From Octopus vulgaris (Eukaryota): DNA of 64,000 nt. Positions 1-62,660 of this stretch are shown here, one piece after another. The position numbers were made by a program, and so were the translations under genes. Numbering within the stretch: position 1 is the stretch's first letter; every line of letters begins with the position of its first letter. Below the pieces are notes generated by a model. It was not told the origin of the DNA. It made no database searches and saw only the letters and a program-made list of their open reading frames with translations. Location: the NCBI GenBank assembly GCA_951406725.2, contig OX597817.1, forward strand, positions 145,638,001 through 145,702,000. Reading direction: 5' to 3'.

Positions 1-761
1 AAGTTTGGTAGGCTAATATACCCCATTATAAATGTTTAAATCAAACCAATTTCATGTCCTTTCTGAAGATTATTAAAAAATTACTAAAACTTTGGTCTCA
101 CTGTATCAGCCTCACCATTCAACAGAAACTTGTGAGAAGCCATAGGCATATCTCTTTCCGTAAACCAAACCAACAATAATTATACAAAGAAATATGTATA
201 TAGCCATTTTGACCAAATAGAACTTGACTGTTACTGAATCATTATATCTGCTGCTGCTGCTGCTTATTATTGCATTTTTTTATAATCCTATTTTCTTCTC
301 ATAAAGCCATAATTTAATTAAAATTACTCTTTGTTTCACAGATTTACTTTTACAGTAGATGTTCCATATTTCTCCTTTTGAGTTTTATTTATTCAGTATT
401 TGCACTACCTTGTTTTTGGTCCTTACTCAGCATCAAGTCCTTTTGGTTTTATTTTTATTGTTTATAAATTAAGTGCTGTACTTAAACAATTTTTCAGCAC
501 TTCATCTTTGATTACTGGACCATTTACTGTACAAAAAAATATGAAGGATTACATTTGTTTTAATTATCATCTACCTTTAGGTGTTTATGAAGAATATTAT
601 ACTGTGATGGATTTTACATATCACACTTGCAGATTTGAATAAATTAGAATAAATTCAAATTTTTAAATGAAATTTTAATTTTATTTTCATTTTCTTAAGT
701 ATTTTCTTCCAGATTGTAGCATTATATCTTATGGAGAATTTTTTTTTTTTACCTTCATTAG

Positions 762-987
762 AAAACAAAAGGAACTGGAAGAAAAATTGATAGAAGAGGA
801 AGTAGCTAGGCGTGTAGAAGAGCTTGTGGCTAAAAGAGTTAATGAAGAGCTTGAGAAACGTAAAGATGAAATTGAAGCTGAGGTGATGCGACGGGTAGAA
901 GAAGCAAAACGAATAATGGAGAAACAAATGCTTGAAGAATTAGAAAGACAACGCCAAGCTGAACTTGAAGCACAACGTCAAAAGGAG
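762..987 (+). CDS. ARGLU1: ARGLU1 internal coding exon (upstream exon lies outside the window)
   Basis: Poly-T tract and TAG acceptor at 759-761, GT donor at 988. Encodes [75 protein letters not shown], recognisable as the ARGLU1 Glu-rich coiled coil. Confidence 0.96.
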
Positions 988-1331
988 GTATTGCAAAGTT
1001 TCAGCTTTTATTTTTCTTTGCTGTTTTCCCCTCAGTTTGGTTTACTTTTCATATTTTACTCTCCAGTTCCCTAAAGAAAAACATCAGTAACTATTGTATT
1101 GATTTTTTTTTTTTTTTTTGTCTTTTAAATTCTAAAATTGATAATCACTTTAGGCTACATTTTGTTTTAAAATGTCTTGTCAAAGTCCTGAAGCTATGTG
1201 TGTTTTGGTAATCTTGTAAATTGCTTTTCACTTTAAATTGTTATGGCTTTAGTTCCATTAAAATTTTCTTTTTACTATTATATATCTACTTAAGTAAACT
1301 ATAATGGTGTGTGTGTGTATGTATATATATA

Positions 1332-1376
<45 letters not shown>

Positions 1377-4300
1377 TTAAATTAGGTCAGCTGTATTGTA
1401 GTATTTTCATAATTAATAGTTAATTAGTTAATTATTTTCCCAAAGAAAGGCTTATTATCTAATTCTATATTAAAAAATGCCAAAACCATAATTGATTAGG
1501 ACTTGGTAACACATTTACTAAATTCATGTAGGTATTTTAAATTGGGAAGGAAAAAAGTCTTTTTTTTTTGTTTTTATTACAAGGAAGAAATTAAGAGTTC
1601 TTATATTTCTTTCTCTCTACTTCCTATGATAATTCATTTTTAGGTTGATATAGTTAAAAACTTTATTCTGAAAAAAAAAAAAAATCATCTCTATCCTGAA
1701 TGTGAACTGTTTTATCGAACATTTCTGTTCCTAACTCTCTTGTTACCGTATTTCTAATAAAATACACTGCCTGTCAATTTTTGGATTAATTTGAAGGATT
1801 TAGTAAAAATATAAGTATAACATTCTTATAACTTATATCTCCTGCATAAAACTACATGGAGGGTTCAATTTTAAATATAAACAACTTAAAAATGAACAGA
1901 TTTATATTAGAGGCAGTTTGGTGTCCAAAGAGTTTAATTTAAAGAAGGAATAAAAGTACTTCCTTGTTGATATTGTGTGACAGTTCTTACCACACACACA
2001 CACACGTGCAATTTGTATTTTGATCTTTTCTAAAAAGGATTCTCTCAGAACTTTAAAACACAATGTAGGAATACTTTTGAAAGAAACAGTAAACATTACA
2101 AAGCAAATAGTATTGACATTATTAAATTGCATTTTGATTTCCAATTCACAAATCATAAACTTCTTTTCAATAGTGGAAAGAGTTTGATGTACATAATTTA
2201 AAAGAAATAAATTTTCTTTTAAAATAAAATCTCATCTCTTTTCACATGTATCTTATTTGCACACAGTTTTTGATTGTTCACAATTCTTGTATTATAGATG
2301 GTTTTTATCTTTTTTTTTCTCCCACTTCTTCAATCTGTGAAAGTTCAATAATAGAAATGATAATTATTGACCTGTATAATTTAAAATGTCATTTATGAAA
2401 AATAAATGGCTCTGGCTGACAAATTAAATGTTGGCTCTATAATTTAATGCTAGCCTAGTTCTGTAAAGTTGTAAATGGAATGAAAAATGTGAGGGGAAAT
2501 AGGCAAGGAATCTTTTAACTGGCAGTTTATCCCCTTCCTCTCTATAACATTAAATTTGTCTTAAAATATTTAATATCTATGTTGGTTTTTCTTTTCAATT
2601 CCTTCCAATAAGATGGTTGCAGTGTTCCTTTCCTCAAGGCTGTCTTAAAGATTTCAATAGATATTTTATATAATATCCTGGTTCCCTTTTTCTATTCAGG
2701 ATGATTTTTTGTTAGTTAGTTTCAAGTTTTTAATTAATCAAGAGAAAATTTTGATTTCCAAATTGTTTTATATATTCTTACTCCTTTTAATGGAATTTAA
2801 AACAACACCAATTACAACTGATTGCATATTTTCCTTTTTGTGGTTTTTGCTGAATTGGTCAAAATTTATCAACATTATTTTAGCAGTGAATATGGCCCAG
2901 AGCCCTGATTCATATCCTATTCAAATTGTTTCAACTTTGCAATAATATTCCCACTTTTACTGTCCTTTTTTTTTTTTTTTTTCATTGCAAACATTTTTGT
3001 TAGCATTTAACAGTCTTGTTCTTCATAAACCTCAAGCATTTTATTGATAACATCATTATAATTTTCAGTTGGCTCAGTTAACAATCTTGTCTTATTTTCT
3101 CTCACGTTTTTCAAACCAAAGTCTATGTTATCTAAATCAACTTATGTTAATGTCTTAATTATTTGTATTTGTTAGTTTTCTGGTTACTTCACTTGTGAAA
3201 CTGGTTATGTACATCTTCTGGTGTTGAAGCTGTTTCTCTCTATTTTGTATGAATGGTTGATGTAAGTATGCAAGTGGCTCTTTTTTTTTTTTTTTTAGTT
3301 GACAGCAAAATTAGAATCTGCATCAGTGAAGACCATTTATTTTATTTAATCTTTTAAGTTTCATTTTGTTTGTAAATTTGAGGATAGTCTCTCTTTAGTT
3401 TGAATGGCTGATGTATTACACTACTTTTGCTTCACATTAGTCTTCTATCATTGGTAGCTCTATTCTGACATAATTGAGTGCTACTCTGTGAAATGAGGAA
3501 TATTTGTTTTAATAATGGTTGGAATGATACAGATTCTATCTTCTTCCCAAGTAGAAAATCTTGTTCAAGAGACAGCTTTTTCCTTAAAGAAATTGTAGAA
3601 ATTCCTTAAGGCTTAAATCAACGAGTTTGAATTTCTTTTTATTTCAATTTGATAGGAAACTTATAAACTGGAATTGTTTGATTTGTTGCAATACATATGT
3701 TGGTTTCTTAAAATTTGCTTCCTCTTTGGATTGCAGAACTCAAACTAAACTCAGAGCTTTGCTTAACCATTTGAAGTTTCTGATAAATGATAGTTTCTGA
3801 ATGGTGTCATAGGTGCAATGTCATGGTACTGTTTTTATGTCTTGTATCCATCTGCTTTTGCATTGGCTTTTTTTTTTTTTTTTCCATCTTCTCATTTATT
3901 GGACTTTTGGCTGCTGAACTGTACATCCTTACCAATATTGATACAACGTGCTAAACAGTTATATTGTTGCTTTCTTTTTTTTATTTTATGAAGAATAAGT
4001 TACATGCTGGAAAATATAAAAGAGCATGGAAACTGTAATGTATTTGAACTTCAGTTTTTATTCTGAAAGGATGAATATATATCCTAAAATTAACAATTGA
4101 AATTTTCCATTTTCGTTTACATAACTCAAAAATTGAGTACATTTCCAGCTGAAAATGTTATTGGCAGTTGGTTATTTAATCCAACAGGTTTCCAATTTGT
4201 GAAAGATTTCTTTAAGCAGAAAGCTGTTTCTTGACATCTCTTTGTAAGTATTGTTATTGATTGAGCAATTCTGCTCTCATGTGTACATGCTATATTTTGG

Positions 4301-6733
4301 CCACACATATATCGGCATAAGTTAACTGGAACAATCATTAGGTTGCTAATGCCGTCAGACCTAATGAGAACATTTTTTTACAGTATTCAGTGATGCATTT
4401 CCAGTAAAATAAACCATACCATTGGATTCCTGCTGAAAAGATATAAAAGATTGGATATTCACACAGCTGAGGAAGTATGTAAAGTTTACACAGCCATAAT
4501 TCCCTTCTGTCCTTGCTCCCTTAAATTGCTGTTTGCCCATTCTGATCTAAATGGTGCGTTCATCTCTTGTACTTCAGGGTTTAATATTACACTATTTAGC
4601 TTTGAATTTTTCTTGACGTTATTAATAACATCTTTTCACAGATTGTCCATTCCATTGCATTGCAAGTTCTTGGCACTGGTACTTAGAATATACTTTAAAA
4701 TACATGGAATTTCTTTATCAGATTTTCATTCACTCTTTTTTTTTTCTTTTTTCTATATACTTCAGAATAAGTTTTGGTGTGCAATTCAAAACTCTACATG
4801 TTAAGGGGCTAAAACAATTTTCAAGATGGTTATTTAATGAATGTAGTTTTGACCATTTTCAAACAGTTTTAGGAAATTCTCTGCAAATTTCAGCTTGTCA
4901 GCCAATTTCTATTCCATATTGTTTGTTGAGTGTTGCTTCTCTCTTTTTAGTTTCTTTTTGCTCCTGTCTTTTAATTTTATATTTACATTGTTTCTTTAAT
5001 TTCCCATCAAACTAATGTTAAAAGAAAATGAAAGAATTGTTTTGTATAGAGATTGATATTTAGACCAAAATCTCTCTTAATAGTGTGTTAGTATTTTTTA
5101 GTAACAGGAACCCTTATCTAAGAGTGTGCAGATTGCTTCCTTCTTACACTAACCTGGGAATGTCTGTGTTTTGATATATTGGTTTATAACAAAGGCAATA
5201 ATCATATGCTTGCCTGATTATCATTTAGTATTACTAAAAGCAACTTCTATTGTAGCCATTGCCAATTACGACATCTATTTATCAGTATAATTTCTTTTAT
5301 AACGAATGTTAATTATTGAGAGAGGAGAATAAAAGTAAAGCACCAAGTCTTACAATCTTAGGAATTCCCTTTTTTTAGAAATCAGTGGTAGTTGTAGTAG
5401 TTGTAGAAAAGTTTTGTTAATGCCACTTCTGACACTTTCACTTTAGAAGACCTAAAGGGATTTTGTTTTGGGTCTTTGGCCAAATCCTTTTCTTCTGTAT
5501 TATGTATCGACTGCTGAAACAGTTAATACAAGCGTCGTCAATTTTTCGCTGGCCACCTCCTTATAATTACTTGCCCTTTATTACCTGCTGCTGCTGCTAC
5601 TACCACTGACTGGTGGACAGTTTATTTGGTGTCTAGTTGGGGATTTTAATGGCTTTGTTTAAATATGAGACAACTGGCTGCTGCTGTGAAGTAAACAGTT
5701 TGAAGAGGAAGCATTCCTGGAAGGATATAATCGTGTCATGTGCTACAGATGTGTACCTACCTACTCTTGGGTATGTAGAAAGATACTTTTCTATCAATGA
5801 CGTCACATTATCTGTCAATTCTCCGTGCAATTTGTTTAAACTATTCTTGGAGTGTAGTAGAAATTACTGCCCACAATGCAATATGTTGGGCTAATCGATT
5901 CCTTATCTCTAGGAATATGCATAAAAGTTCAACCAAAATGCTAATTCCATACTTATTTTTTTCTAAATTCATGTTTATTATAAAATGTACATTTTTTTTA
6001 TATAATTAATTTTAAATTCTTTAAAGTCCAACTGGTATGTATCTTTTTATTTTGACCTTTTTTTCCCTCATGACTCTAACATATAAAAAGAAAATATTTA
6101 TAATAATGTTGAGGTTGAATTGCTGTTAGATCTCATGCTGATTCATGTGAAAAGGTTTGTAACATTGCCGCTTGTGTTTTTCTTAATTTGTTTCTCAATC
6201 TTTTTTTTTTTTATTTCTCCCTCTTGCCTTTTAAAAACACAAACAATTGTTACCAATGATCTAGCTCCTTTGTTTTTGTTTTTTTTTTCATCAAGAAACA
6301 TGATTCGGTCATCTGTATTTGACTAAACTATTTTTTTTTTCTAGAGTGTTGTTTGAATGTTTGTCTAATGTGATGTGTAGCCTTTTGTAAATTAAAAAAA
6401 AATAACATCAAAAAACATATTTATTATCCCTTGCCTTTCTGTGCTGACAACAACAACAGTAATTTGAAACACCTTTGTTCTCACCCAGCTGTGCTGATGG
6501 CCACTGGTGGTGGTGGTGGTGGCGGCGGTGGTGGGGGGTATAGTGGTTGTGTAACTGCCGCTGGTACTACTGCTGTCGCTGCTGCTACTGCTACTCCTGC
6601 TGCTCTACGTTGAACTCATCCACGGCCTGTTACTTATTGTGTCATAGCTTACAGCTGATTATTTTATTCCTCGTGTATTATACAGTTTGTTTGTTATGCA
6701 CCTTCGTATGAACATGGTTATCTGTCTTTGTAG

Positions 6734-6817
6734 GAAGAGGAGCGGAAAAAGCGAGAGGATCTTGAACGCATAATGGAAGAAAACAATAAAAAAATTGAAG
6801 AAGCTCAAAGAAAATTG
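6734..6817 (+). CDS. ARGLU1: ARGLU1 penultimate coding exon (84 nt)
   Basis: tctttgtag acceptor, gtaagt donor at 6818, phase 0 at both ends. Encodes EEERKKREDLERIMEENNKKIEEAQRKL. Confidence 0.96.
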
Positions 6818-6869
6818 GTAAGTTGGGGTCTTAGATTGTTGCTTGTCTTGATTTTATTTAAGTAAAATA

Positions 6870-7087
6870 GGCTCCTGTGCTGTTGGCATGTGTAAAAAGA
6901 TTTGAGCGAGGTCGTTGCCAGTACCGCCTGACTGGCCCTCGTGCTGGTGGCACGTAAAAAGCACCCACTACACTCTCAGAGTGGTTGGTGTTAGGAAGGG
7001 CAGCCATCTGGTTCGCCAACCCTCAGTCAAAATCGTCCAACCCATGCTAGCATGGAAAGCTGACATTAAACGATGATAATGATGATA
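6870..7087 (+). mobile_element. Retroposon 3' fragment with (GAT)n tail (abundant family, probably an RTE LINE 3' UTR)
   Basis: Core gagtggttggYgttaggaagggca...ccaacccatgctagcatggaaagc...aaacgatgat recurs many times on both strands (e.g. near 14020, 26450, 33970, 39370, 55420, 60200). Confidence 0.75.
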
Positions 7088-7985
7088 AACATAGAAGTGT
7101 GGCTTTAATTCTAGCCCAAATACAAAGTTAGAAACTGCTTAATGATATTAACATTGGATATTACTAGATGAAATATCCTAGAGTATAAGTTTCGCAAATA
7201 TGACCTTGATGAAGCGTCATGGATTTTAGGAAAATGGAAACCCTATTGATTAAGCCCTGGTTAAAAAGGTTTGAGAATGCAGTCTCCATTAGCAATGATT
7301 TAGTGACTTTAAAAATGTAATATGATTGTTGAATCACTTCATGACAGATTTACATGTCAGGTGACAATAAAGTATGTCCATAGTTTATATTCAATTCCCA
7401 AGAATCTGATGTTCTCATGAGTCTTGCTGCAATGATGTTTGCCTTGCTCTGCTATTATATAGTGTTCTTAAGATGTCTATGAAAAGATTTCCTCACAGAC
7501 AAAGTCCACTGCATCATGCCTTTCATTGTTGTATATACATTAAGTATGATGCACAGATGGCTAATTTCAATTTAATGTTGGCTCAAGAAACAGTTGTCGT
7601 GATAAGTTGTTTGAAATGTCATTCAATAAAAATTCATGCTCTGAATAGTATTTAACTAGAAGCCTCATGTTAGACCTTACTATCTCTGAGTATGTGGTCT
7701 TAGCTATGTTAGGCGTATGTTTTTGCTGGGATCACATCTTATAGCCTGAACCTTCTCTTCGGGGCCAGAACATATGTTCACTTCCAACAATGAGTCTACA
7801 AAACACAAGTGAAGGCTGACATCGAAGTATTTCTCCCACAGTTGGAGGTGTGGTGTTGTTGTTGTTTGCACACACACTTTTAAAATCCATATCTACACAT
7901 TTTGTCAAGGAGTCAACTTAATAATTACTTTTTAAACTAGAGCAAACCATAGGATAATTAATGATAATGTAAGAGTATTGCTAAA

Positions 7986-8206
7986 CCCTTTCGTTACCAA
8001 CCTGGCTGAAACTGCCTCCGGCTCTGTAGTATAACTGTCTTGTTTTCATAAGTTTTGAATTAAAGTCTTCCTCCAAACCTTAGTCACAATTTATGTTCCT
8101 AACACTAGCTGAATGATAACTAAGTTATTTTGCTGAATTCTTTGTTATATTTAAAGTAATTGAAAGAAACACAGAGCATCTCAAAATAAATACAGTAATG
8201 AAAGGG
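7986..8206. mobile_element. piggyBac-type MITE
   Basis: Termini ccctttcgttac and gtaatgaaaggg are inverted; flanks TAAA and TTAA; no ORF. Confidence 0.65.
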
Positions 8207-8279
8207 TTAAGGATATTTCTCATTGAAATATGCATTGTTCTTTTTATTTTATTTCATTTTTTTTTTCTTCTTCATTCAG

Positions 8280-8438
8280 GCTGAAGAGCAGTTGAAGCTG
8301 GTTGAAGAACAGCGAAAAATTTTGGAAGAGAAACAGAGAATGGAAGAGGAGGAAAGGAAACGGGTGAAACAAGAACAAGACAGAATTTTAAATAAGAAAA
8401 ATGCTCGACCAAAATTATCGTTCAGTTTGGGAAAATGA
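8280..8438 (+). CDS. ARGLU1: ARGLU1 last coding exon
   Basis: Long pyrimidine tract and CAG at 8277-8279. Encodes AEEQLKLVEEQRKILEEKQRMEEEERKRVKQEQDRILNKKNARPKLSFSLGK*, ending in the conserved RPKLSFSL. Confidence 0.96.
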   Translation, partial: AEEQLKLVEEQRKILEEKQRMEEEERKRVKQEQDRILNKKNARPKLSFSLGK

Positions 8439-10690
8439 AAGACTAAAGACTGGTGTAATGTAAGAAAATCTAAAATTAGAAAGTTATTTTGTGTAGGCAA
8501 TGTTGACAATAAGATACAAATTAAGGATTTGGTTATCTTTATGGAGAGCTGCTAAAGTAAAAGATTTAAAAGAGACCTGGAATAAAATTGCAGACTATAC
8601 TGCAAGTTCTATTTACAGATGTCTTGGAAAAGGGAAGAAATTTTGATTGTGTTTACTGCATTGCATTATTCATGAACTTTTTTTAAAGCGTAAGAACTTA
8701 ATAAGGTTTTTAAAATCTGGTCTTCCTTAGAAAAAGATTCCCTTTTTCTCTTGATGATTATTTTTCAAGAGAAGGATTCATAATCTTATCAGGGATTAGT
8801 CGTCATGGATTAAATAAAAGAAACTTTTTTTTTGTTATCCCTAACACCAGTTGAAAAAAAAAAAAAAAAGCCACAATTAGTTTAGGTTACTGGTCTGTTT
8901 TCTTTGTTGAAAGATTAAAGAACATGCATACATTTGCGTCCGTATTATGTGAAATATCAATTTCTCTTGGTCGTTGATGTTTCATGAATTAGGAATGTTA
9001 ATCAAATAATGTTTTTCTGACTAATTTAAATGCCTTGTCAGAAAATACATTATGTAGTGAATTTGATGAGTATGTCATTGTTGACGGTTGGTTGTTACTT
9101 TGAACAGAGGTGATTGCATTTTAATGTATTTTATTTCACTGTTGCAAATCTACTGTCTAGTTGGCACTGTAACTCCACTTGCTTTGTGGCTTTAACAACA
9201 ATATATTCTCTTGTTACAAGGAATATAGTTGTTTACAACCAGTTTGGCTAAAAATACTTGGCTGAACTCTGTGAACAATATCACACCAATAAGATAGGTG
9301 ATGTCGCTAAATCATCTAATGTTGAATGATGCATTGTTATAGAATAAACATCACAGCAAAATGCTGTTTTGTTTGATCAGAGTTAAAGATGCAGGGTTGG
9401 CTGGACTTTTTATTGTTAAATGGTATCGCTTGACTTGTTGCTGCTTTATATCTGCAGCCATTTCTCTCACTCCTCCATTATAATTACTGCTCCAATTGAA
9501 CAAAATGTAAAATTTCAAAATCTCTAGAAAACGGCCATTTCCTATATTCTTTTGAATATAGATTATTGATACCTTCTTGATTGTAAAAATTGTTTCTGTA
9601 CATTAGTTAAATGGTACAGAACTTTTTTTTTTTTTAATGTACATTTATTGTACTTCTGGATCTCATCACCATCTTTCCTTCCCCTACCCCCCAACATTTT
9701 GTACAGTTTTTACATCTGTAGCAAAACTTGTTTCATTCATACATTTTGCAACTTCTCTCTCTCTTTCCCATCATCCCCTACTCTCTTTCAAAAGCCCAGA
9801 TGTTGTACCTTGCAGTGTTCAAATGTTGGCTTATTAAATCAGTTGAATGCTACCCAAGCTTGATCTACATTTGTACATTTTGATACTTTCATAAATGATC
9901 TCCTTTTCATAGGAAATGCTTATCGATTATAAGCATTTGAAAGATCTTCATTTTAATGGATATCTGATGGAAATAGATGCTGGTTCTCAAAAAAAAAAAA
10001 ATCTCTTCTATTCCTGTGCAATGAGCCATTTAATGAACAACTGGCATTGACTACTATCTGTTAGTATATACTGAACATAACGTTCTCAGGTCTACTGCTG
10101 GACCCAGCTGTGTATAATTTCTATGCCGAGCCAAACCAAGACTTACAACATTCTGCCTACTTCAACTTTAGTGCACTTATTTCTGAAGGTTTGGCAGTAG
10201 CTTTGAAAATTGCCTGTTTGACTACTATGTAGTCCAACTTCCCTTTGTCTTTTGTATGTACATTTTTTTTTTTTTAAACTTGGTCATTTCTCCTTTCATT
10301 CCATATCCCAAGTTCATGCTTAACATTATACATATAGTTAGCTTCTTTTGATACTGTCCGTTTCAGTACATTTTGATATTTAAGGACATCTGAAATGTAT
10401 CTAGTTTATAACATTTTTACATTTAATTTTTCAAGAAAACAATTATAAAATAGTGATGCTTAACAAAAAGAGTGAAGTCTTGAGTCTTGGTTGTAAAATT
10501 TTCGAGCAGGTTTTTTTTTTTTTTTTTTCATACCATCTTCTGTAAATACACATGAAATCATTAAAGCATTTAAATGAATGTAGCTTTGTTTTTTCATTTC
10601 TTTTAAACTTATTTAATTTGATCTTGTTAGAAAAAAAAAATCAAAACATTTAATTTGTGAAACTAATAAAATGGACAATCTTAACAGTTT
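8439..10690 (+). other. Probable ARGLU1 3' UTR with several polyadenylation signals
   Basis: U-rich and free of the local repeats. AATAAA near 8581, 8813, 9343 and 10665; SINE-derived sequence resumes at about 10750. Confidence 0.5.
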
Positions 10691-13106
10691 CTGGTGATTG
10701 ACTTTCAAGCTGTGGATTTTGTATATTTCTGCTATAATTTCTTAATGTGATAGCACATGGCCTGTAGGTTAGGACATTGCCCTCATGATTGTGAGGTTGT
10801 GGTTTCAATTTCTGGATCAGATGTGGTGTTGATCAACACTTGTCTTACTATCATTAATAGTTCCACAAGACACTAATTAGAACTGTTGGCTACTGGTCTT
10901 TTTATAATGGCTGGTAGGAACCACTTTTTTACTGGGAGGGGTATAGTTTCACTATGCAACACAGACAATGAAAGATTTTTAGCTTAGAAGTCATTTCTAC
11001 ATAGATTGTTATTCAGAACAAAGATAGTGTAGCCTAGACAATGGAGAAGAGGTGAAGACAGTAGTCGTTTCTCATTGAAGAATAAGATATGACTTTGTAA
11101 CTTTGAATCTACTGCATGGCACTTTGGGCTAGTCTTCTACTGGAGCCCAGAGTTAAAAGCTTTGTGAGTGAAATTTGGTAGATGGAAACAATATGAAAAC
11201 CCACTGAGGGATGAGCTCCTGTTCTTTGGTAGAAGACTTAATCCATGGACTTTGCAACATAAAAGGGAGAACTGTACAGCAGATTGAACATGATCCTTTA
11301 ACCTTCTAGACTATAAGCAGTCTAGGTAAAAGTCGAGGGCCTTTGACTGAGCATTTTAGAATTTAATAACTGGTGAGAAAAGACAGGACATTATGAATCA
11401 GCTGATGGGCAGCCTCCCTTTGTGTTAGCCGCAGGTGTGTCTGAGAAAACAAAGAAGCACAAAGCAGAGAAGATGCTAGATAAAGGCATGCACTGGTCAA
11501 AACGATTGCAACAGTATGGACTGGGCACCAGAGTGTATGGGGGGTGAAAAATAAAAACTAGTTGTCATCCACTCCAAGCCAATGATTGCACTTCTCCACA
11601 TTTGTTCAGTGAGCTAGAAATAGAAGCCAAATTCCCCTCAAAGCACACTTTATCAAATGTGTTAACTTTTTGTAAAATAATGTTGATAATGAATAGAGTA
11701 CTATATAATGGACCGTTGTGGATAACAAGCATCTAAACCAATTTGAGAGATAATACAGTATCTGCCAGGAAAACTTATCTTTTTGTAAAATAGTAATGTA
11801 GCCACAAATACACTGTATGAAGTTAAGACAGGAGGTTTACAGCTGGAATGACTTTTGTCATTGGTCTCCTCAATGGAAATTGACCTAGGGTTAAACAAGT
11901 GTATATACAGTGTAATAAACAATATTTTATATATTGGGCAATGTTTCTTATGTTCAGTAACTTTCTTTTAATCTTATTCAGTGTTTCATAATCAACTTCT
12001 TAATTATTTCACAAGTTCTCATCTCTATGCATCAACAACTGCTGTAGGTTTTATGATCATTTCTAAGCAGCAACCAGTTTCTAATTGATCACAAAAAAAA
12101 AAAAAAAAAAAAAATCAATGAAGTTGGTAATAAAAGCACCGTGATAAATGGAAGCAAAACTGGTATAACTGGTGGATTGAATCTTAATCTTAATAACTTT
12201 TTTTTAATTATATTTTGGTCCTTTTGAAAGGAGCATGGAAGAAAATTTAATGTTATAATGAAGATGCAACAGATCAAAAGATCTTTCTTCGATCAGCTAT
12301 TTTTAAATTGGACACAAAGAGAATATAAAATTTAATTTACAAGCGATATTTTGTTTGTCGTGTTGTTTTCAATGTAATTGTAATTCAGTGAAATATCAGA
12401 AGTTTGTAATCATGCAATCCTTCCTTTTGTAGCTGACAGTTTTAATACCATGACATAGCATGTTTGAAATGATTCAATAAGAGCTGTTTTGCCAACATTA
12501 TTTATAATATGCAGCTTGGATTTTTGTCCCTTAGTCGAATTGCTTAAAATTTTTAACTAAGAAAAAAAAAGGGAAAAGACAAGCCAAAATATACCAGCCA
12601 TGTTAGTCCATTTGAGAAGTATTTGCTTATGTTATAAATCCTAAAATTTGAAAAGCATACTTCTGTTGATTATCATGATGAGTGTAAAGTGATAGTGGGA
12701 GATAAAATGAGATTCCTGTTAGTTTAAAATCCTTTGCAATTTGTTATGCTTTTAAGTCTTTGAACAGTTCACATCAGTAGTCATGTTTTGGGTTTTTCTT
12801 TTTTTTTTTGCGCCTTTAAGATAATGTTGGAAGTTATAGGTTTGAAATTTCTATTTTATAAATATCACAGTTTTATGCTTTAGGATAAACAACAAATATA
12901 TTATGTAGCAATGTTCGATACCAAATCATTTTCAGTATATTGGTATTTAAGAGTGTTGATGATGGTGCTTCAGCAGCGCTACAGCCAAGAGGTTGAAATC
13001 TGTACAAGAATTGTTCAGAAATAGGAACACCAAGGATTTGGGGTTCTCAGAGATGTAAATAATTTAATATATATTTAAAGGGTTTAGCTGATTGAAGTCT
13101 TTCGTG

Positions 13107-13237
13107 TTAGGATTTTGATTGGTCTATGTGAGATTCCATAGAAGGACTTTTTTTGGGCTCTGTACAAAAAAATCTGGAAATGAAACTTTCACTGCGACTT
13201 CGTGGAACTTGATCAGGCGGAGGCATAGAGGGAGTTT
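13107..13237 (-). CDS. HDAC11: HDAC11 exon 10 (predicted last coding exon, C-terminal extension)
   Basis: Minus-strand acceptor ctcctctcttttccag; phase 1 matches the exon 9 donor. Open frame ETPSMPPPDQVPRSRSESFISRFFCTEPKKSPSMESHIDQSKS* (TAA at 13109-13107). Rests on splice logic only, not homology. Confidence 0.7.
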
Positions 13238-13634
13238 CTGGAAAAGAGAGGAGTAATGAGATAAATTATAGGGATTGACTTTTGGGATTTGTAAATTAAT
13301 AGTTGATTAGCAAATACTGTTACATGTTTTAAAATCCTTTTCTATAAAAACAGTATTGCACTTTACATCTTCCAGCACCACACCCTGTATGGCTGCTAGA
13401 TACATTCGTTTGTAAAGTGAGTGGCATTAGGAAGGGGATCCAACTGTAGAAACTATGTCAAAATAGATAATGGAGCTTGGTCGTGTGTTTTGACTTGGTT
13501 TCTATGGTTGGATGCTCTGCCTAATGTCAACCACTTTACAGTATGTACTGGGTGCTTTTTACATGGCACCAGCACCAACAAGGTCATAGAGTAACTTGCA
13601 AGATAAAAAAAAAATAGGAAGGGAGTTATATAGT

Positions 13635-14160
13635 TATGGAAGAGGAAGACCTGGGATGAGGTGATGAAGCACGACCTTCAAACATTGGACATCACAGAGG
13701 CAATGATAAGTGACAGACCTTTGGAGATATGCTGTGCTTGTGAAGACCCGGCAAGCCAAGTGAGATCGTAGCCATGGTCGGTGCCAGTGTCACATAACCA
13801 GCCCATTTAAAAGTACCCCTCAATCATTGGAATATGCTGTGCTTGAGAAGACTTGGCAAGTCAAGTGAGATCGTAGCCATGGCCGATGCCAGTGTCGCAT
13901 AATCAGCCCATTTAAAAGTACCCTTCAATCGTTGGAATATGCTGTGCTCGAGAAGACCTGTTGAGTCAAGTGAAATTATGGCCGAAGCCAGTAGCACATA
14001 AAAAGCACCCACTACATTCTTGGAGTGGTTGGCGTTAGGAAGGGCATCCAACTGTAGAAACCTCACCAGATCAGATTGGAACCTGGCTTGCCAGACCTCA
14101 GTCAAACCGTCCAACCCATGCCAGCATGGAAAGCAGATGTTAAACGATGGTGATGATGAT
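13635..14160 (+). mobile_element. RTE-like LINE 3' end joined to the (GAT)n-tailed repeat, with an internal ~105 bp duplication
   Basis: Decayed RKTWDEVMKHDLQTLDITEAM, typical of the RTE ORF C-terminus, runs directly into the common repeat; gatatgctgtgcttg-gaagacc recurs near 13727, 13831 and 13936. Confidence 0.65.
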
Positions 14161-21105: not shown

Positions 21106-22265
21106 CTGCAACAAGAGAACAGATTCATTAGAAATTAAGACAATGATACATGTTAAAAGGAAAATGATAAAAAAAAATTTCTCACAGTGGTACAAGGCTA
21201 GACATTTGTAAGAGAGGGGAAGAGTCTATTAAATTGACGACATCACAAAATACAAAGTTTATTGATTGTCGAGAAATAGAAGACAACTTTGGTAGGATCT
21301 GAACTCAGAATGTGGAGCACAGAATTATTCTGCCACCACATGTAGTGATATTAATTTCAGATTTTGGCACAAAGTCAGCAATTTGGGGGGGAGGGGTAAG
21401 TCGATTATATCAACCCCAGGGCTCAACTGGTGATTATTTTATCAACCTCAAATGGACGAAAGGCAAAATTGATCCCAGTGGTATTTGAACTCAGAACATG
21501 AAGTGAGAAGAAATGCCACTAAGCATTTTGTCCAGTATGTTAATGATCTGCCAACCCATTGCCTCAGGAATGATATTAATACATTAGTTATTAAAGTAAT
21601 GGAAAACAGAAGGGTTTGTAATTGATACTCTTGCCAAGATCATATGCAAGAAATTATCAAAAAAACGTAATGACCCAAATGGGAAATCATATAAAGAGAA
21701 TTAGACAACACTGTATTGGTTAGACTGAACAACTTGTCACAGTTAGAATATACATATATCTACAACCATGCAAATTATTTATATCTATTGGGATGTGTGT
21801 GTGTGTATGTGATTTATTTAGTGATCCAGTGGTTTGTTACTCTGGAGATTCCACAGCATGCCACCACTTCTTCAAGTCAAAGTGAGCCATGTGTGTGTGT
21901 GTGTGTACATAAACACTACTAAATCATCAAGAAACATCAAAAACAAACATTTCTTAAAATGCTGTCATTGAAAACAACCAATTTACGGTTTTCAATGAAG
22001 GAGACTCTACATGATCATTTGATCTGTTAGAAATAGCAGCCAAATCTCCCTCAAACTACATGTTAGCATCCTGTTAAGAGACGGACACATTAGATAATGT
22101 AGTCCTAGATACTCAATGCCTGAGAGAAATATGGGACTGTCATCAGTAGAATCATAGGTCTGCTTGATCACTACCGACCTGGTACTAAGAAACAGCTCAA
22201 ATAAGTAAAATATAAGAAAACCACAAAAAAATTATTACAAAAGACTGAAAAGGTCTTTTCTGTAA

Positions 22266-22564
22266 CCCTTTAGCATTTAAACTGACCATGTCTGACCTAA
22301 ATATTCCACCTGTTTTATGTTCAGACCAGTCAGATCTAACCTCTCATACCATCATCTTCATTGTTCGACAGTGGTCGAGACAATGGAATTTACTATGTTA
22401 CGCCAGACTTCACGGTCCATCATAGCATTACGGAGGTCCTGTTGCTAAAAATATACAATCAGATCATTGAAATCTCAAAGATGTGAGATATAGCATGATT
22501 ATTTCAAACACAAAGTGAAAAAATAACCATTACAAATTGATAGAATAACCTAAATGCTAAAGGG
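22266..22564. mobile_element. piggyBac-type MITE
   Basis: Perfect 14-bp inverted termini ccctttagcattta and taaatgctaaaggg; flanks GTAA and TTAA. Confidence 0.75.
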
Positions 22565-23358
22565 TTAACATATTGATCTCCTGTGGTTTTAACAATGTGT
22601 TTGTATGTGAAGACATTGGGAAAATGTGCAGAGGATGCAGGCAGAAACTATTATAAGTCGTGTTAGAATTTGAAATATTTTAGCATAATCATCACTCAGA
22701 ATCTGCTTTCTATACTGGCATAGGTTGGACAGTTTGGCAGGATCTGGCAAGCCACAGGGCTGTGAAAAGCCCCAATGTCAACTTTGGCACAATTTCTATG
22801 ACTAGATGCCCTTTCTACTGCCAAACACTCCACAGCATGTACTAGGTGCTCCTTTTGTGCCATTGGCAGAAACGTTAGCATGCCGGGTGAAATGCTTAGC
22901 GGCATTTCGTCTGCCGCTACATTCTGAGTTCAAATTCCGCCGAGGTCGACTTTGCCCTTCATCCTTTCGGGGTCGATTAAATAAGTACCAGTTATGCAGA
23001 TATAATCAACTTAATCCATTTGTCTGTCCTCTCTGTGTTTAGCCCCTTGTGGGTAGTAAAGAAATAGGTCACCAGGTAACTTACAAAGATAAAAAAAAAG
23101 AACAGGAAGAAAGCTCCCTTGGTTACATGAGGAAGGTGACTTTATGTCAGGTAACATTACAACCAAAATTTTAATAACATTAACATTTTACTACACATAC
23201 ACTAACATTGTTTGTGACAGATTGAACCAAGAAATGAAACAAACCTTTTTCAGAAAGTGCAGTATTGTTTGAGAGACTAGTTTAATTTAATTAAAAAATT
23301 ACTTTCAGACCAGCTGATTTCAACATGGAAAGACCACAAAACAAGATTAACAGCTTAC

Positions 23359-30774: not shown

Positions 30775-31320
30775 TCCATGCTGGCACCACATCAAGAGCA
30801 CCCGTGCCAGTACCACGACAAGAGTACCCGCACTGGCACCATGTCAAGAGCACCCGCACTGGCACCACGTCAAGAGCACTTGCACTGGCACCACGTCAAG
30901 AGCACTCGCACTGGCACCACGTCAAGAGCACTCGCACTGGTACCACGTCAAGAGCACTCGCACTGGCACCACGTCAAGAGCACCCGCACTGGCACCACGT
31001 CAAGAGCACCCGCACTGGCACCACGTCAAGAGCACCCGCACTGGCACCACGTCAAGAGCACCCGTGCCAGTGCCACGTCAAGAGCACCTGTGCTGGTGCC
31101 ACGTCAAGAGCACCTGTGCTGGTGCCATGTCAAGAGCCCCTGTGCCAGCATCACATCAAGAGCACCCATGCTGGTGCCAGCATCACATCAAGAGCACCCA
31201 TGCCGGTGCCATGTCAAGAGCACCCATGCCGGTGCCATGTCAAGAGCACCCATGCCAGTGCCATGTCAAGAGCACCCATGCCAGTGCCATGTCAAGAGCA
31301 CCCATGCCAGTGCCATGTAT
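30775..31320 (+). repeat. 26-bp minisatellite, about 21 copies, inside a (GAT)n-tailed retroposon fragment
   Basis: Unit cactggcaccacgtcaagagcacccg head to tail with no spacers; continues into the common repeat at 31340-31513. Confidence 0.92.
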
Positions 31321-32404: not shown

Positions 32405-32680
32405 CATTCAATTTGTTAACATTCAATCACCAGATTGATTAATTAATTGTTTGAATAATCATTCAGTCAAGCACTCAATCAGGTGGGTTTGTCAGAGTCC
32501 TTTCATCACAATTCCTGACCTCATCTCAGAATAGACAAGCAAACCTAGAATAGTAGGGGCATGTCATTGATGAGGCTGAGATTGGTAACAAAAAGACTAA
32601 CAAACCTAGCTAACTGATTGGTTGGCTGAATAATTAAACAACTGATTAATCAAACAATCAATTAGTTAATAGGTTAAATG
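32405..32680. repeat. Decayed palindrome or MITE
   Basis: Left ttgattaattaattgtttgaataatcattcagtcaa...cctcatc mirrors right gatgaggc...ttggctgaataattaaacaactgattaatcaa. Confidence 0.55.
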
Positions 32681-34496: not shown

Positions 34497-36440
34497 ACTA
34501 TATCCTCAGGCAGCCAAAGCCTTGTGAGTGGATTTGGCAGACAGGAACTGAAAGAAGCCCACTGTGTGTGTGTGTGTCCCACTACCACTTGGTAACTGGA
34601 GTTGGTGTGTTTACATTCCCGTAACTCAGTGGTTCAGCAGAAGAGACTGATAGAATAAGTACCAGGCTTTAAAAAAGTACTGAAGTCGATTCATTTGAGT
34701 AAACTACTTAAAGTTGGTGCCCCAGCATGGCTACAGTCCAATGACTGAAACAAGTAAAAAATAAAAGATAGCTTAGAACAGCTATGGAACCTCTATGTGT
34801 ACAAGTTGCGACTCACATTGGAATACTTCTTCCAGGAATTTAACCTTTGGAATTCTTTTCTTGCTCACATATTCTCTACAAAGTTCAAGATGAATATCAG
34901 TTGATTTGACATCATCAGTCTGGAATGGTCTGGAAAAACTGAGTGTGGCCCCTCCTATCAAAGCTGAATAATAGTTTCTGCTTTAGGCACGAAACCAGTA
35001 ATTTTGAGGGGCCAGGAGTTAGAGGATGCCATCAAACCTAGTGCTTGATTGGTATTTTATTTTATCAATCCTGGACAAATGTAAAGTAAAGTTGACTTAG
35101 GTGAAATTTGATCTTAGAATGTTAATAGTCTGAATGACTGCTACAAAGCATTTTTCTGATACTCTAACAATTATGCCAGCTCAAGATCTAACCAATCACC
35201 ATTTTGAGTGACTGGCAAAAACAATATTTTAAATGTCCACAAAATTGTAATTCATATTTTTAATTTACCGATTCCATTGAAACATACATAGACATATTAA
35301 AACAACAATAATCTATAAAGCAACAAAATATTTAACATCAGAAACAATGCATTCCTAAAAGAAATAGTCATAACAATCATTGAATAGATACGAAATGTTT
35401 TAAGTTGATGCAGCTACCTGCTTAATATTTATTTGCTGTGATGTGGAACAACCTTACTATGAAGTTTTGTCATGCATGCTATAAAGTGAGTGGAAGACAG
35501 AAAATATTGGGGGTAACAAGACATATATTTACAGTTATATTGAGTTGCAATTCTCCCTAAAATAACAATAAAAGCTGAAACAAAACAAATCATGCGGTCA
35601 ATGAAATTTTATCAGATATTAATTAGATTTTACAATTATTTTTCATTATATTTCATTCCAAGGAGGGGCAGCAAAGATGCAGAAATAGCGGGCCAAACTA
35701 TAAGCATTAACAATATTTATCTCTCTATGACATGATTTCAGATCCCACCAAAATCAACTTTTTTTTTTTCATCCTTTCAAGTCAATAAAATAAGAAACAG
35801 TAATATGTTTGTTTTACATCCAGTTTTCTATGCTGGCACAGGTTATATGAGTACTTATTTCAGGTCGTATTTTACAACCAAATTCTCTTCCTGTCATTAA
35901 CTCTTACATGTTTTATAAGTAAGGAATTTTATTCTACTACTATGAGACTAAGACCACAGAGTTACAGGATGAAATGTTCACTAAGAATGTAAACACAAGT
36001 TGTTTAGTTTGGCTCAGATGATCTTCTGTGAAGGGGTGTAAATGACAACTTTAAGCACATGCACAAGAAAAAAACTCCAGTGCACTGTGTAATGTGGTTG
36101 GTGATAGAAAGGACAACCAGCCATAGAAACCAAACAAAACATGAAATGCAAGCAAGATGAGATTCTCCAACCTATCTAGGGTTGGCAGTGCACAGTACCC
36201 TTGAATACCAGTCCAACTGTGGTGACCCATGCAATCCATACCAGAATAGAAAGTAGATGTGAAATTATGATGTCTATATCATCATCTCTTTCTCTCTCTT
36301 TCTCACACTCATATACACACTTTCATGCATTTTCCATCTTGCATGGAGATGAAGGATAAAACAGTTCTATATTTAAGAGATGAGGAATTATGTACATTAT
36401 TTAAATTTGACGAATAGTTGTCCTAATCTTGTTTGTTGTT

Positions 36441-36486
36441 AACACAATGTTTCGGCTGATATACCCTCCAGCCTTCATCAGGTGTC
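36441..36486 (-). ncRNA. Minimal type I hammerhead ribozyme motif
   Basis: Minus strand reads gacac-CTGATGA-a-ggctg-gagggtatat-cagcc-GAAACATT-gtgtt: core boxes, perfect 5-bp stem II, stem I gacac/gtgtt. Confidence 0.75.
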
Positions 36487-36748
36487 TTGGGGAAATTTCG
36501 AACCTGGGTTCTCATTTCTAAGGTATTTTTTGATGTTGTTATTATTATTATTATTCAGGTCACTGCCTGGAATAGGACTTGGAATTAGTAACCCGAGCTC
36601 TTAACCACTACGCCATATTCCAACAGACAAAAGGCTACTAACCCAAAAATTCGAGTTTGATTCCTGGCAGTGACCTGAATAATAACAATAATAATAATAT
36701 CAAAAAATTACCTTAGGAATGAGAACCCAGGTTCGAAATATCCCCCAA

Positions 36749-36794
36749 GACACCTGATGAAGGCCGGAGAGTATATCAGCCAAAACATTGTGTT
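36749..36794 (+). ncRNA. Mutated second copy of the hammerhead motif
   Basis: gacac-CTGATGA-a-ggccg...cagcc-AAAACATT-gtgtt; the catalytic G of GAAA is replaced by A. Confidence 0.6.
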
Positions 36795-36952
36795 AACAAC
36801 AAACAAGATGAGGACAAATATCCGTCAAATGTAAATAATGAAAGATTAAAGTTGAGCCTAAATGAGGGATGAAACTAAATACCATGAGGCACAGGGTCTG
36901 TTTCTCCACTATTATCTTCTTTAATAATGGTAATAAGCTTTTTTAAAAATAC

Positions 36953-38160: not shown

Positions 38161-40058
38161 ATATTAAAGGTGCACATTTTACGAACTTAGAGGGACTGAA
38201 AATAAATTTTCCCAGACAGGATTTGAACACAGAATGTAGAGTTGTAACTAAGTACTGCTGTGTATTTATTTAGATGTGCTACTTGACTGCTGTAGTAGTA
38301 GTAATAATAATAATAATCCGTTCTACTATAGACACAAGGTCTGAAATTTTGGAAGAGGGGGCTAATGAAGTGTATCAACCCCAGTACTGAACTGGTACTT
38401 AATTTATCAACCCCGAAAGGATGAAAGACAAAATTTGGATGTAAAGGGCTGGAAGAAATGCTGCTTAGCATTTTTTCCGATTCACTAATGATTCTGCCAG
38501 ATAATAATAATAACTAATGAGGATGACCATAATGATATTTATTTAAATTAATGATAATAGCAAAAAATAATTATAAGACAACATCTAAATGCTTAAAAAT
38601 TCTGTCACACCATCTTTCACCAGTTTATTAACCAAAATTGATTTGAGGTTTCACAGATCAATTAAAATGCAAAAATTGATTTTTGATAGACTAATAACTA
38701 ATTAAATTTCTTAATTCAAAAATATTTTTTGTTGACTGTTTAATGCCAATAAACCTTAAATCACTCTTTGTTCTACAATACAAATTTCTGGTTTTAAAGT
38801 GTTCTAAATTATAAACCTTCCATTAAAATTTAATGTTAATTTATGTATCAAAAACCATATTAATACTGACAAAGTTATTTTACTAAATTCTTCATTTTCA
38901 AAATTAACCAAAACAAGGCTAGAGAATTTCAGAGATAAGGTAACAAAAGGGTTCAATAAATCCCTATATTCATCCAAAAACAAGTGTTTGTATCTACACT
39001 AAACAGATATTCAACAATGCTTTCTCTAAAATTAAAATAATTTTTGTTCTCTCAACATTAGAAACCAATATTGTGGTTGTTATTTAGTTCCAGATAATGT
39101 GTATCTATTATTTAATGTGTCAGTATGACATGATGGAGATTGGATGTTATTGCAAGAAGCTGCAGTGACTGTATAAAGTTTTTTTTTGCTGGGTGTTAAT
39201 ATGGTTTTTTAAACACATAAAAAACATTCGAGCGAGGATGTTGCCAGTGCCACTGGACCGGCTCCTGTGCAGGAAGCACATAAAAAGCACTATTTGAGCG
39301 TGGCCATTGCCAGTACCGCCTGACTGGCCCTCGTGCCGGTGGCACGTAAAAGCACCCACTACACTCTCGGAGTGGTTGGCGTTAGGAAGGGCATCCAGCT
39401 GTAGAAACTCTGCCATATCAGATTGGAATCTGGTGCAGCCATCAGGTCCACCAGACCTCAGTCAAATTGTCCAACCCATGCTAGCATGGAAAGCGGACGT
39501 TAAATGATGACGACATAAAACCATTGATATATGACTTATAAAACACTTCAATACTTTTATAATTGCTGTTTAATAGATTTTTTATTACAAACATTTAAAA
39601 TTACTTTTTTCTTTTTTGACATCAAATATTTCATATAAGAAATATTTGTTATAATAACTGCTTGGTTTCTTTGTAGGATTTTTTGTTTTTGTCTTTTGTT
39701 TTACATTTAGAATATGCCATCCTCCTTTCTTTTTTGTGTGTAAATGAGTACGTGTCTGTGTGTTTGTAGGCAGAAATAAACAAATTGAGGCATGGAGAGT
39801 GTTTTGTTCTGGGTCTCCTATCTTTGAGACATATCTGCTGCACACAACAGATTGTCTTGAGTATCAACATTAGGGAGGACAATGCAATGTTAGAAAATTA
39901 CAGAATAGAGAAACTCGTGTGACTTGTTTGTGAGATCAAAGCCTATATTGTTACAGTACATCTATTACCATAGTTACACATGCAAAGAGCAGTAGGCCTA
40001 CAGATATTCCATATCATAATGTAAAAAAATTAAACAAAAAAAAAAAATGCACTAATAG

Positions 40059-52074: not shown

Positions 52075-53205
52075 TGTGTGAGTTCCTATTTCCTCTTCAC
52101 ATGTTTGTTGGTTGTATACACTGGCACCACAGTACAGTGTCTTTTGATTCCAGTTCACTGCAAAAGCATGTTCTGGCTTCTTGATATGTTGTCACATTGC
52201 GCAATCTTTGCTAACAAAATGAATATTCAACTAATGTTGTTTGTTTCCTGTTCTAATCCTAACCATGTCCAGGCTGTTCATTGTTTGAAAACAGGTGAAG
52301 GTTGGGATCAGGAAGAGCACCTGGCCATAGAAAACTCTACCCCAACATTATCTTATCTGACTCATGCCAGCATGGAAAAATAGATGTTAAAACACTGTTA
52401 AAACGCTGATGATAATGATGAGTACTTGGCCAGTGCGATGATGGTCTCAGTTAATTATATATGATCAGTAACCTAGCAAGTGACATAAGAGCTATTTTGA
52501 TATATATGAATGGTAAGGCGGCAAGCTGGCAGAAACATTAGGATGCTGGGCGAAATGCTTAGCGGTATTTCATCTGTCTTTAAATTCTGAGTTCAAATTC
52601 TGTCCAAGTCGAATTTGCCTTTCATCCTTTCGGGATCGATCTAATCGACTAGCACCCTCCCCCAAAATTTCGGGCCTTGTGCCTAGAGTAGAAAAGGATA
52701 TATATGAAGGGTAAGACAGCGAGCTGGCAGAAATGTTAGCAAGCCGGGCAAAATGCTTAGTGGTATTTCATCTGTCTTTACATTCTGAGTTCAAATTCTG
52801 CCTCCATGCCTAGAGTAGAAAAGGACATATATGAAGAGTGGGATTCATGATTGCTTGGTAAGAATAATGATCACTGAGAAGTGTAAAGGAAGATTTTTGT
52901 CACCTGACCTTTCTTCTTTTATCTTTTACTTGTTTCAGTCATTAGACTGTGGCCATGCTAGGGCACCATTTTGAAGAATTTTAATCAAATGGATCAACTC
53001 CAGTACTTGTTATTTTTTGTAATACCCAGTACTTATTCTATCAGTTTCTTTTGCTGAACTGCTAAGTTATGGGGGTGTGAAAGAACTAGCACCAGTTGCC
53101 AAGTGATGGTGGTGGTGAGGATAAACACAGGCACAGAGACCCACACACACATATATGGGTGTGTGTATATACAAATATACATATATATATATAAGGGTGT
53201 ATAAA

Positions 53206-53364
53206 GTATACAGGAAGAGGAAAACCACTAAGTGGTCTTACAAGCCGAAAGGAGATGTCAAATCCTCAAACCATGAAAGTTACATTCTTTTTGTGGCTAA
53301 GGGACTTGCTATCTCCTTTTAGAATATACGGAGACCACTTAGTAGTTTTCTTCTCACTGTATAC
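53206..53364. repeat. ~160 bp imperfect palindrome or MITE
   Basis: gtatacag...aaaaccactaagtggtct versus agaccacttagtagtttt...ctgtatac; inner halves (aaaggagat / atctccttt) also complementary. Confidence 0.75.
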
Positions 53365-53617
53365 TTGATACACACTTATATGTATAAAAAATATTTTAGT
53401 CTACAGTCAACTTTTATGCACATTGGCAACTGGTATAAATTATTATTTTTAATAATTTTTACCCTTTACACACACACACACACATACACATATATATGTA
53501 TATATATATATCATCATCATCATCATCATATATATATATTTCAATATGTGACCGTGTGTGTATCATAGGTAATTTTCTTTCTCCGTTTTCCCTTCCTTGG
53601 ACCTTTTCTTTTTCTAT

Positions 53618-61399: not shown

Positions 61400-61571
61400 C
61401 TACAAATGAAACAGCTTTAAATATAAACCAATGGTTACAGAATTTAACATCTAAGGAACAACATTCCCTATTTGGATCTTAGTTTTTTCATCTCGGATCT
61501 TTTAAACTTTAGGATCATCTGTGCTCCAAATGGCTCCCATGCCAGTGGTACGTAAAAAGCTCTATCTGAGC

Positions 61572-62660
61572 GCGATGGAGAGGGCCATAGCCCAACTAAT
61601 TAGGGAGGGAGTCTGCTTAGATGAGATAAAGTTCTGTTTTGTGCCAGGTAGAAGCACCACTGATGCTATATTCTTGGTATGGCAACTGCAGGAGAAATAC
61701 CTAGCCAAAGATAAACTCCTATACTTGGCTTTTGTTGACTTGGAGAAAGCCTTTGACAGGATCCCTTAAACCCTTATCTGGTGGGCAATGCAGAAACTGG
61801 GGATTAACAAGTGGTTAATAAGAGCTGTACAAGGATGTCGTTAGTAAGGTACGGGTCAGCAATGAGTATAGCGAAGAATTCCAGGTAGAAGTAGTGGTTC
61901 ACCAAGGATCAGCCCTCAACACCCTCTTATTCATCATAGTCCTCCAGGCAATAACAGAGGAATTCAAGACAGGCTGCCCCTGGGGGCTCCTCTATGCTGA
62001 TGACCTTGCTCTCATAGCAGAAGCACTACCAGAACTTAAGAAGAAATTTCATGTGTGGAAACAAGGTTTAGAATTGAAGGGCCTTAGAGTCAATGTTGCA
62101 AAAACCAAAGCCCTAGTAAGTAGGAAGAAACTCCATAAGATGTACCCAGTGTAAGCTATGGACGCATAAGAGGTGCAGCAACATCAAAGGAAGGTTAACT
62201 GGGAAGATAGCTTTTGTGTGCGGCAGATGCACAGGGGCAATAAACACTGCAGATGCTCAGAAAACTGATTCCATCACATGCCAGGGGAAGAAACTAGAGG
62301 TGGTTGATAGCTTCTGCTACTTAGGTGACCAAGTCTGTAGTGGGGGGTGGGGATGCTCAGAGAGTGTTGCCACTAGAATAAGAATAGCCTGGGCAAAGTT
62401 CAGAAAGCTTCTACCTCTACTGGTGACAGGGCCTCTCGCTCAGAGTGAAAGGTAGATTGTATGATGCATGTGTGCAAGCTGCCATGCTAGATGGCAGTGA
62501 CTACTGAAGATATGCGTAGGCTTGAAAGAAATGAGGCTAGTATGATCTGCTGGATGTGTAATGTCAGTGTGCAAACATGACAGAATGTAAGAGCCCTGAG
62601 AAAAAAGTTGGACATAAGAAGCATCAGATGTTGTGTGCAAGAGAGACAACTGCACTTGTA
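61572..62660 (+). mobile_element. Defective RTE-clade LINE reverse transcriptase fragment
   Basis: FVPGRSTTDAIF, LAFVDLEKAFD, VHQGSAL, LLYADDLALIAE and LEVVDSFCYLGD across several frames with stops. Confidence 0.92.

Follow-up and report, generated by a model that had tools for sequence, protein, structure and literature searches.

Does the second intron of octopus ARGLU1 belong to the kind of regulatory intron that has been described for the human gene? The question is raised by a stretch of 64,000 nucleotides (nt) of Octopus vulgaris (assembly GCA_951406725.2, contig OX597817.1, positions 145,638,001 to 145,702,000 of the forward strand), hereafter the window, numbered from its first letter. 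Pirnie et al. (PMC5389617) report that human ARGLU1 intron 2 holds an ultraconserved element, is retained, includes an exon linked to nonsense-mediated decay (NMD) and takes part in homeostatic splicing, in agreement with what an earlier note on this DNA had said of the vertebrate intron (retention, an ultraconserved element and an NMD-linked exon). We propose that the window intron is probably a constrained, partly retained control intron that diverts transcripts from full-length ARGLU1. As a general idea, constraint on intron 2 and its retention in invertebrates are supported by the sequence comparisons described below; for the octopus itself the support is indirect and comes from scarce repeats, stems with a strand bias, a donor that is non-canonical yet conserved, and word shares in runs of guessed RNA type.

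The window opens inside a plus-strand ARGLU1 gene, and three exons in it encode, in frame, the C-terminal 155 residues (Table 1). The host gene was identified by a Pfam match to exon 2 (PF15346, ARGLU; E 1.3e-19) and by homologues named ARGLU1. Named vertebrate proteins read through at the residue where intron 2 lies, and the human intron 2 donor (gag/GTaacg, the slash marking the junction; Table 1 of PMC5389617) has the same position; together they show that the window intron is orthologous to human intron 2. The earlier placement of this intron at the position of the autoregulated one is therefore borne out by the Pfam domain, the exon translation and the vertebrate read-through residue. Among 74 metagenome loci, a GT occurs at the window's donor base in 60; another 8 are spliced at that point, 5 deviate and 1 is cut. 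In a protein tree of 37 rows, the window falls into a supported clade of 18 rows with rotifers and metagenome loci, apart from vertebrates and insects (98/97), a placement that we read as spiralian. At 5.7 kb, the window intron exceeds in length each of the 30 complete orthologues gathered from invertebrates (0.8-3.1 kb). Neither an isoform nor a read-through form of cephalopod ARGLU1 came out of three protein searches (best identities 84-91%), and no relative was found in the viral and prokaryote collections. The open reading frames of intron 2 (longest 117 aa) look like low-complexity noise.

We predict that part of the ARGLU1 transcripts keep intron 2, meet a stop 28 codons in and make no full-length protein. 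By extension from other invertebrates and vertebrates, purifying selection would act along most of the intron, retention would occur in mature RNA from which introns 1 and 3 have been removed, and internal decoy sites together with RNA structure may slow intron 2 splicing. Human work alone suggests the further step, in which ARGLU1 protein would shift the balance to retention and so provide negative feedback. The control region would have changed its sequence from lineage to lineage, with position and logic kept. The window itself displays the host gene, the intron position, a scarcity of repeats, one old relic, complementary arms and a donor without G at intron position +5 (+5G).

Selection on the intron is suggested by the metagenome loci, a set that includes no cephalopod orthologue (best exon identity 74%). 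A group of 14 related spiralian loci has a third-position identity of 0.53-0.88; its intron 2 sequences align in 91/91 pairs, over a median 65% of the length, whereas intron 3 aligns in 7/66; upstream matches occur in 19/66 pairs and fall mostly in exon 1. The coefficient of variation of length in this group is 0.12 for intron 2 and 0.62 for intron 3. Two other loci, L004 and L009, align over 1,635/1,819 nt of intron 2 and 0 nt of intron 3 at 70% third-position identity, and intron 2 is likewise alignable within the arthropod-like pairs L020/L026 and L002/L003. A 15-bp long-range stem occurs in the 14-locus group; its pairing is 96%, five pairs carry double changes and 0/500 shuffles are as good, in a test in which kinship by itself may outdo the shuffles and one row is misaligned at the 3' arm. 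A match of 26 nt between window intron 1 and loci L022 and L024 (E 0.006) was treated as chance. In five further loci (L033, L044, L052, L055 and L056) the ARGLU1 match stops at residue 51 and the expected place has no GT, which suggests that their introns are arranged differently.

Retention was observed in transcript contigs of other invertebrates. Eighteen contigs have exon 1 joined to exon 2 (L025 was left out of the count, its upstream frame not being exon 1); of these, 10 carry on into intron 2 and the other 8 are spliced throughout. Half of the retaining contigs span the whole intron with exons 3 and 4 joined, and the other five end inside it. None of the 18 keeps intron 3 with intron 2 removed, and both introns 1 and 3 are present in genomic contigs of close relatives. 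A spiralian-type protein cluster (P0003, 4 members) has exon 1 joined and reads through into intron 2. In 12 runs (4 studies, 48-199 million letters, RNA type guessed), 0.63-0.78 of the words of positions 700-8500 are present; the share is at most 0.26 without intron 2, and 0.70 is expected if intron 2 alone is retained. These shares are circumstantial and fit retention if the RNA guess is right.

Chan and Pek are said to have described, in 2023, stable intronic sequence RNA (sisRNA) of Arglu1 in Drosophila and human, where the stable intron-containing RNA comes from intron 2, conserved in position; the fly Arglu1 sisRNA reportedly arises by premature cleavage inside intron 2. Cleavage and polyadenylation early inside the octopus intron could likewise give a truncated stable RNA, in which case only the 5' part would matter. 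The seven AATAAA sites of intron 2 (1756, 1949, 2206, 2223, 2401, 4408 and 5328) and the 5/10 retaining contigs that end inside the intron would fit this route. We nevertheless hold it to be quite improbable: the first 1.4 kb looks least constrained (relic, microsatellites, 25% GC), the predicted stems sit at 2.5-6.6 kb, the other five retaining contigs cross the entire intron with exons 3-4 joined, and the contigs that end inside it have no clear poly(A) signal and tail, except for one A-rich end.

The window intron has taken few insertions. Self-BLAST of the window gave no match inside intron 2, whereas repeats take up 33% of positions 13,400-64,000, in 65 intervals separated by at most 2,201 nt, and the 1.46 kb of intron 3 include two insertions, as the earlier note had claimed for the next ARGLU1 intron (about 1.5 kb). 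Its further claim that intron 2 holds no recognisable transposon agrees with the empty self-BLAST and does not survive a profile search. An old relic of a miniature inverted-repeat transposable element (MITE) was detected by nhmmer with a profile of two MITE-like copies (18.9 bits, with none of 60 nulls above 6.3); single-sequence nhmmer missed it. The relic is 52% identical to each copy, with one terminal repeat visible at 1732, and is the sole intron 2 match among 76 family profiles built from the window, in which families are visible only with at least 2 copies inside the 64 kb. A second possible relic (2105-2228, E 0.36) was unsupported by the two-copy profile. One insertion compares with 11.0 expected (Poisson P(<=1) = 2e-4), or with 6.8 in a clustered count (P(<=1) = 9e-3), P values that assume uniform insertion along the window. 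The class of transposon-free regions has a threshold of 10 kb; the longest clean stretch here is 4,940 nt, with positions 1,926-6,733 as the relic-free part of intron 2. Intron 2 is repeat-poor, or depleted, and not transposon-free. As for the other genes, named HDAC11 and LIN37 in the earlier note, Pfam finds an exon with an HDAC domain; LIN37 had no Pfam match in the two pieces tried.

Four stems are predicted in the intron, two of them closing loops of about 600 nt (Table 1). Five pairings score at least 40, compared with none in 25 block shuffles and one when scored for the opposite strand. Under strand-neutral scoring the stems have 19 G·U and 5 A·C pairs (P 0.03), as against 20 and 23 in nine control stems from 32.7 kb, and no such stems occur in 6.1 kb of neighbouring unmasked DNA. 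Positions 5584-5608 may pair alternatively with 6511-6535, using the 3' arm of the 5382-5609 stem. The fold z-scores were computed on regions chosen around the stems, and that of the hairpin at 6506-6595 drops to -1.21 in a 254-nt context. Structure in intron 2 may thus be regarded as moderately supported. No Rfam family exceeded its gathering score in intron 2; a mir-297 match (40 of 90 bits) is a TA-repeat artefact.

The constraint could instead act on DNA or on a separate product, namely an enhancer, a hosted non-coding RNA, or shells of old DNA transposons whose terminal repeats form the two ~600-nt fold-backs. The geometry of these two resembles that of MITEs, and real MITE-like fold-backs occur in the introns used as controls. 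The two have no target-site duplication, mutual similarity or likeness to other window repeats, however, their stems contain 6 G·U and 0 A·C pairs, and Rfam gave no family beyond the microsatellite artefact; we consider this reading very unlikely. Strand-neutral MITE-like fold-backs lie elsewhere in the window at 36395-36840 (~200-nt arms), 32433-32659, 53193-53377 and 22263-22567, and self-BLAST finds no second copy of them.

Returning to the control intron that we favour, its donor and composition are unusual. At the intron 2 donor, +5G is missing in 41/44 non-redundant invertebrate loci, which are related to one another, and +6G is present in 33/44; at intron 3 donors +5G is present in 23/24. 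An exonic AG partly relaxes the need for +5G. Intron 2 is rich in U (T 41%, A 29%), and its T8 runs are 12 times as dense (10.3/kb) as those on the sense strand of the neighbouring gene after masking (0.86/kb). A linker between two of the stems is a candidate decoy region, judging from its splice-site-like sequences (Table 1); it contains a 28-nt direct repeat (3237-3264 and 3388-3415). Eight acceptor-donor pairs could delimit an alternative exon inside intron 2, without enrichment, and no poison exon was identified in the window intron. UGCAUG is absent from intron 2.

The intron shares with human intron 2, as described in PMC5389617, the gene, the intron position and phase, a donor lacking +5G (gag/GTaacg and GAG/GTATTG) and an early stop upon retention. 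Unlike the human intron in that account, it lacks the tandem donors SS5/SS6, which four other spiralian loci match, and extends over 5.7 kb with predicted long-range stems. The same source states that mutating human SS5/SS6 reduced retention. The four loci (L004, L006, L009 and L013, 4/74) are deeply diverged and share G/GTA-N(8-13)-G/GTGAGA, which resembles the human pair as read from the primers of that paper (PMC5389617); GTGAG being common among donors, the likeness need not reflect homology. A single G/GTGAGA is conserved in the 14-locus group. An exon-like stretch of ~56 nt precedes the tandem donors in L006, and may be compared with the 58-nt human ARGLU1 decoy exon in PMC6097662, which describes intron retention through decoy exons in SF3B1, OGT and ARGLU1. 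Like the decoy-exon introns covered there, the window intron is long (>1 kb), belongs to a splicing-related gene and has internal splice-site-like sequences; unlike them, its cryptic sites are not enriched. The four tandem-donor loci also have, about 240-290 nt into intron 2, a conserved unit resembling a branch point, an acceptor, a micro-exon of 12-13 nt and an AAAG/GTAA donor, and a second conserved donor, G/GTAAGC, at ~90% of the intron. The reading of the octopus intron as a mollusc version of the vertebrate circuit, put forward in the earlier note, stands as to host gene and intron position; its transposon-free state has fallen, and the tandem-donor motif that the human element shares with other spiralians is absent.

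Several results weigh against a constrained and retained intron in the octopus. The window intron aligns with none of the 74 loci by word-7 BLASTN or by four profile hidden Markov models from other invertebrate introns. All 10 retaining contigs are arthropod-like, from about 7 species, and 4/4 spiralian-type contigs are fully spliced; loss of intron 1 or 3 is possible in individual retaining species; 34/246 database proteins have exon 1 joined and read through, in counts biased against full-length forms; and DNA-marked runs have word shares (0.63-0.91) that overlap those of the guessed RNA. Introns serving as controls contain strand-neutral fold-backs of equal or higher score, and two of the four stems are triplet-repeat DNA. 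Cryptic acceptors are not enriched in intron 2 (3.3 compared with 3.1/kb), nor are donors (0.5 and 0.8/kb). GGTGAG is absent from the window intron, and with it the G/GTGAGA donor of two spiralian groups and human SS6. Repeat scarcity extends beyond intron 2 to positions 1-761 and most of 8,440-13,400, thus to the first 13.4 kb overall, and a window-wide scan, which likewise assumes uniform insertion, yields a P no lower than 0.03 for a largest gap of 4,940 nt or more. An improved human exon 2 donor gave no rise in splicing in reporters (PMC5389617), and therefore the odd donor need not cause retention.

Could this simply be a long intron of the ordinary sort, in a gene that is locally poor in repeats, with stems that are by-products of triplet microsatellites and chance? 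The scan P of 0.03 with the relic counted, the repeat-poor flanks, the lack of homology to other loci and the unenriched cryptic sites are all compatible with such an intron. Intron 3 of the same gene has, however, taken two insertions over 1.46 kb, conservation singles out the orthologous intron in two spiralian and two arthropod groups, and the stems are missing from the shuffles and from the 6.1 kb of neighbouring unmasked DNA. We regard an ordinary intron as unlikely.

A bolder form of the control intron may be entertained, which we offer tentatively, as a minority possibility. An ancient animal ARGLU1 circuit would have used a donor pair ending in G/GTGAGA (like human SS5/SS6), which survives in some spiralians, and a cephalopod-like lineage would have swapped in a tripled intron tiled with long double-stranded stems. 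These may include mutually exclusive pairings near the acceptor, in which 5585-5609 joins either 5382-5406 or 6511-6535; the choice between them could act as a splicing switch, open to tuning by ADAR editing.

Elsewhere in the window, positions 8440-13400, which follow the ARGLU1 stop, are U-rich and repeat-poor, suggesting a 3' untranslated region of at least 2 kb with AATAAA candidates including 9343 and 10665. A broken fragment of a reverse transcriptase of the long interspersed element (LINE) type lies at 61506-62455 on the plus strand (Pfam RVT_1, E 2e-9). Minisatellites occur at 30779-31307 (26-nt unit), 13721-13973 (105-nt) and 62925-63195 (42-nt), the first two inside or beside copies resembling short interspersed elements (SINEs).

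Table 1. Features of the ARGLU1 region in the window and of related loci (prefix L)
Feature	Position	Strand	Remarks
ARGLU1 coding exon 2	762..987	+	226 nt; translation, PF15346, 84-88% identity to best relatives
Intron 2 donor	985..993	+	GAG/GTATTG, without +5G, with +6G; sequence
ARGLU1 intron 2	988..6733	+	5,746 nt, GTATTG...TTTGTAG (GT-AG), phase 0
In-frame stop, 28 codons into intron 2 if retained	1072..1074	+	read-through translation
(GT)n/(TA)n microsatellite	1307..1373	.	source of the sub-threshold Rfam mir-297 match
Old MITE-like relic in intron 2	1728..1925	-	same family as 7982-8210 and 38722-38964; nhmmer profile
Predicted long-range stem 2481-2503/3091-3113	2481..3113	+	23 bp, 4 G·U, no mismatch; ~590-nt loop; domain fold z -2.65
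Linker between two stems, candidate decoy region	3230..3415	+	best cryptic donor GAT/GTAAGT after 3261; U16 tract and AG before 3299
Predicted long-range stem 3565-3594/4205-4234	3565..4234	+	30 bp, 3 G·U, 1 mismatch; 610-nt loop; domain fold z -3.13
Predicted stem 5382-5406/5585-5609	5382..5609	+	GUA/GUU against CUG/CUA triplets; z -3.56
Predicted hairpin 6506-6534/6567-6595	6506..6595	+	29 bp, GGU/CUG, ~140 nt before acceptor; z -4.38 on 106 nt
ARGLU1 exon 3	6734..6817	+	84 nt
ARGLU1 intron 3	6818..8279	+	canonical donor TTG/GTAAGT; SINE-like and MITE-like insertions
SINE-like insertion in intron 3	6866-7105		self-comparison of the window
MITE-like insertion in intron 3	7982-8210		matches 38722-38964
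ARGLU1 last coding exon, ending at stop codon	8280..8438	+	translation
Covarying 15-bp stem	L042:3117-3131, partner ~145 nt downstream		alignment A2, columns 17-31 and 219-233
Tandem donors	L004:2059-2079, L006:5758-5779, L009:2268-2288, L013:2690-2708		only intron 2 block aligning across these four

The window intron likely belongs to the known kind of ARGLU1 control intron, reported in human and fly. Literature searches pairing ARGLU1 with octopus gave no match, and those on ARGLU1 in invertebrates gave nothing on this intron judging by titles, in searches that most subscription papers lay outside. Retention, if it alone were found, would be an expected extension of the known human and fly phenomenon. 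New here are the four long-range stems with a sense-strand G·U bias, the 12-fold enrichment of U tracts and the donor without +5G common to 41/44 invertebrate loci. Conservation, editing and decoy junctions could be sought specifically in the four stems and in the linker at 3230-3415. In PMC5389617, sequences that meet ultraconservation criteria are cited as vertebrate-only. The loci gathered here suggest that, across spiralians and arthropods, ARGLU1 intron 2 is constrained over its whole length and retained, with no sequence alignable between groups. Because constraint and retention would be shared in this way, ARGLU1 intron 2 may be a test case for a splicing feedback loop that outlives its sequence.

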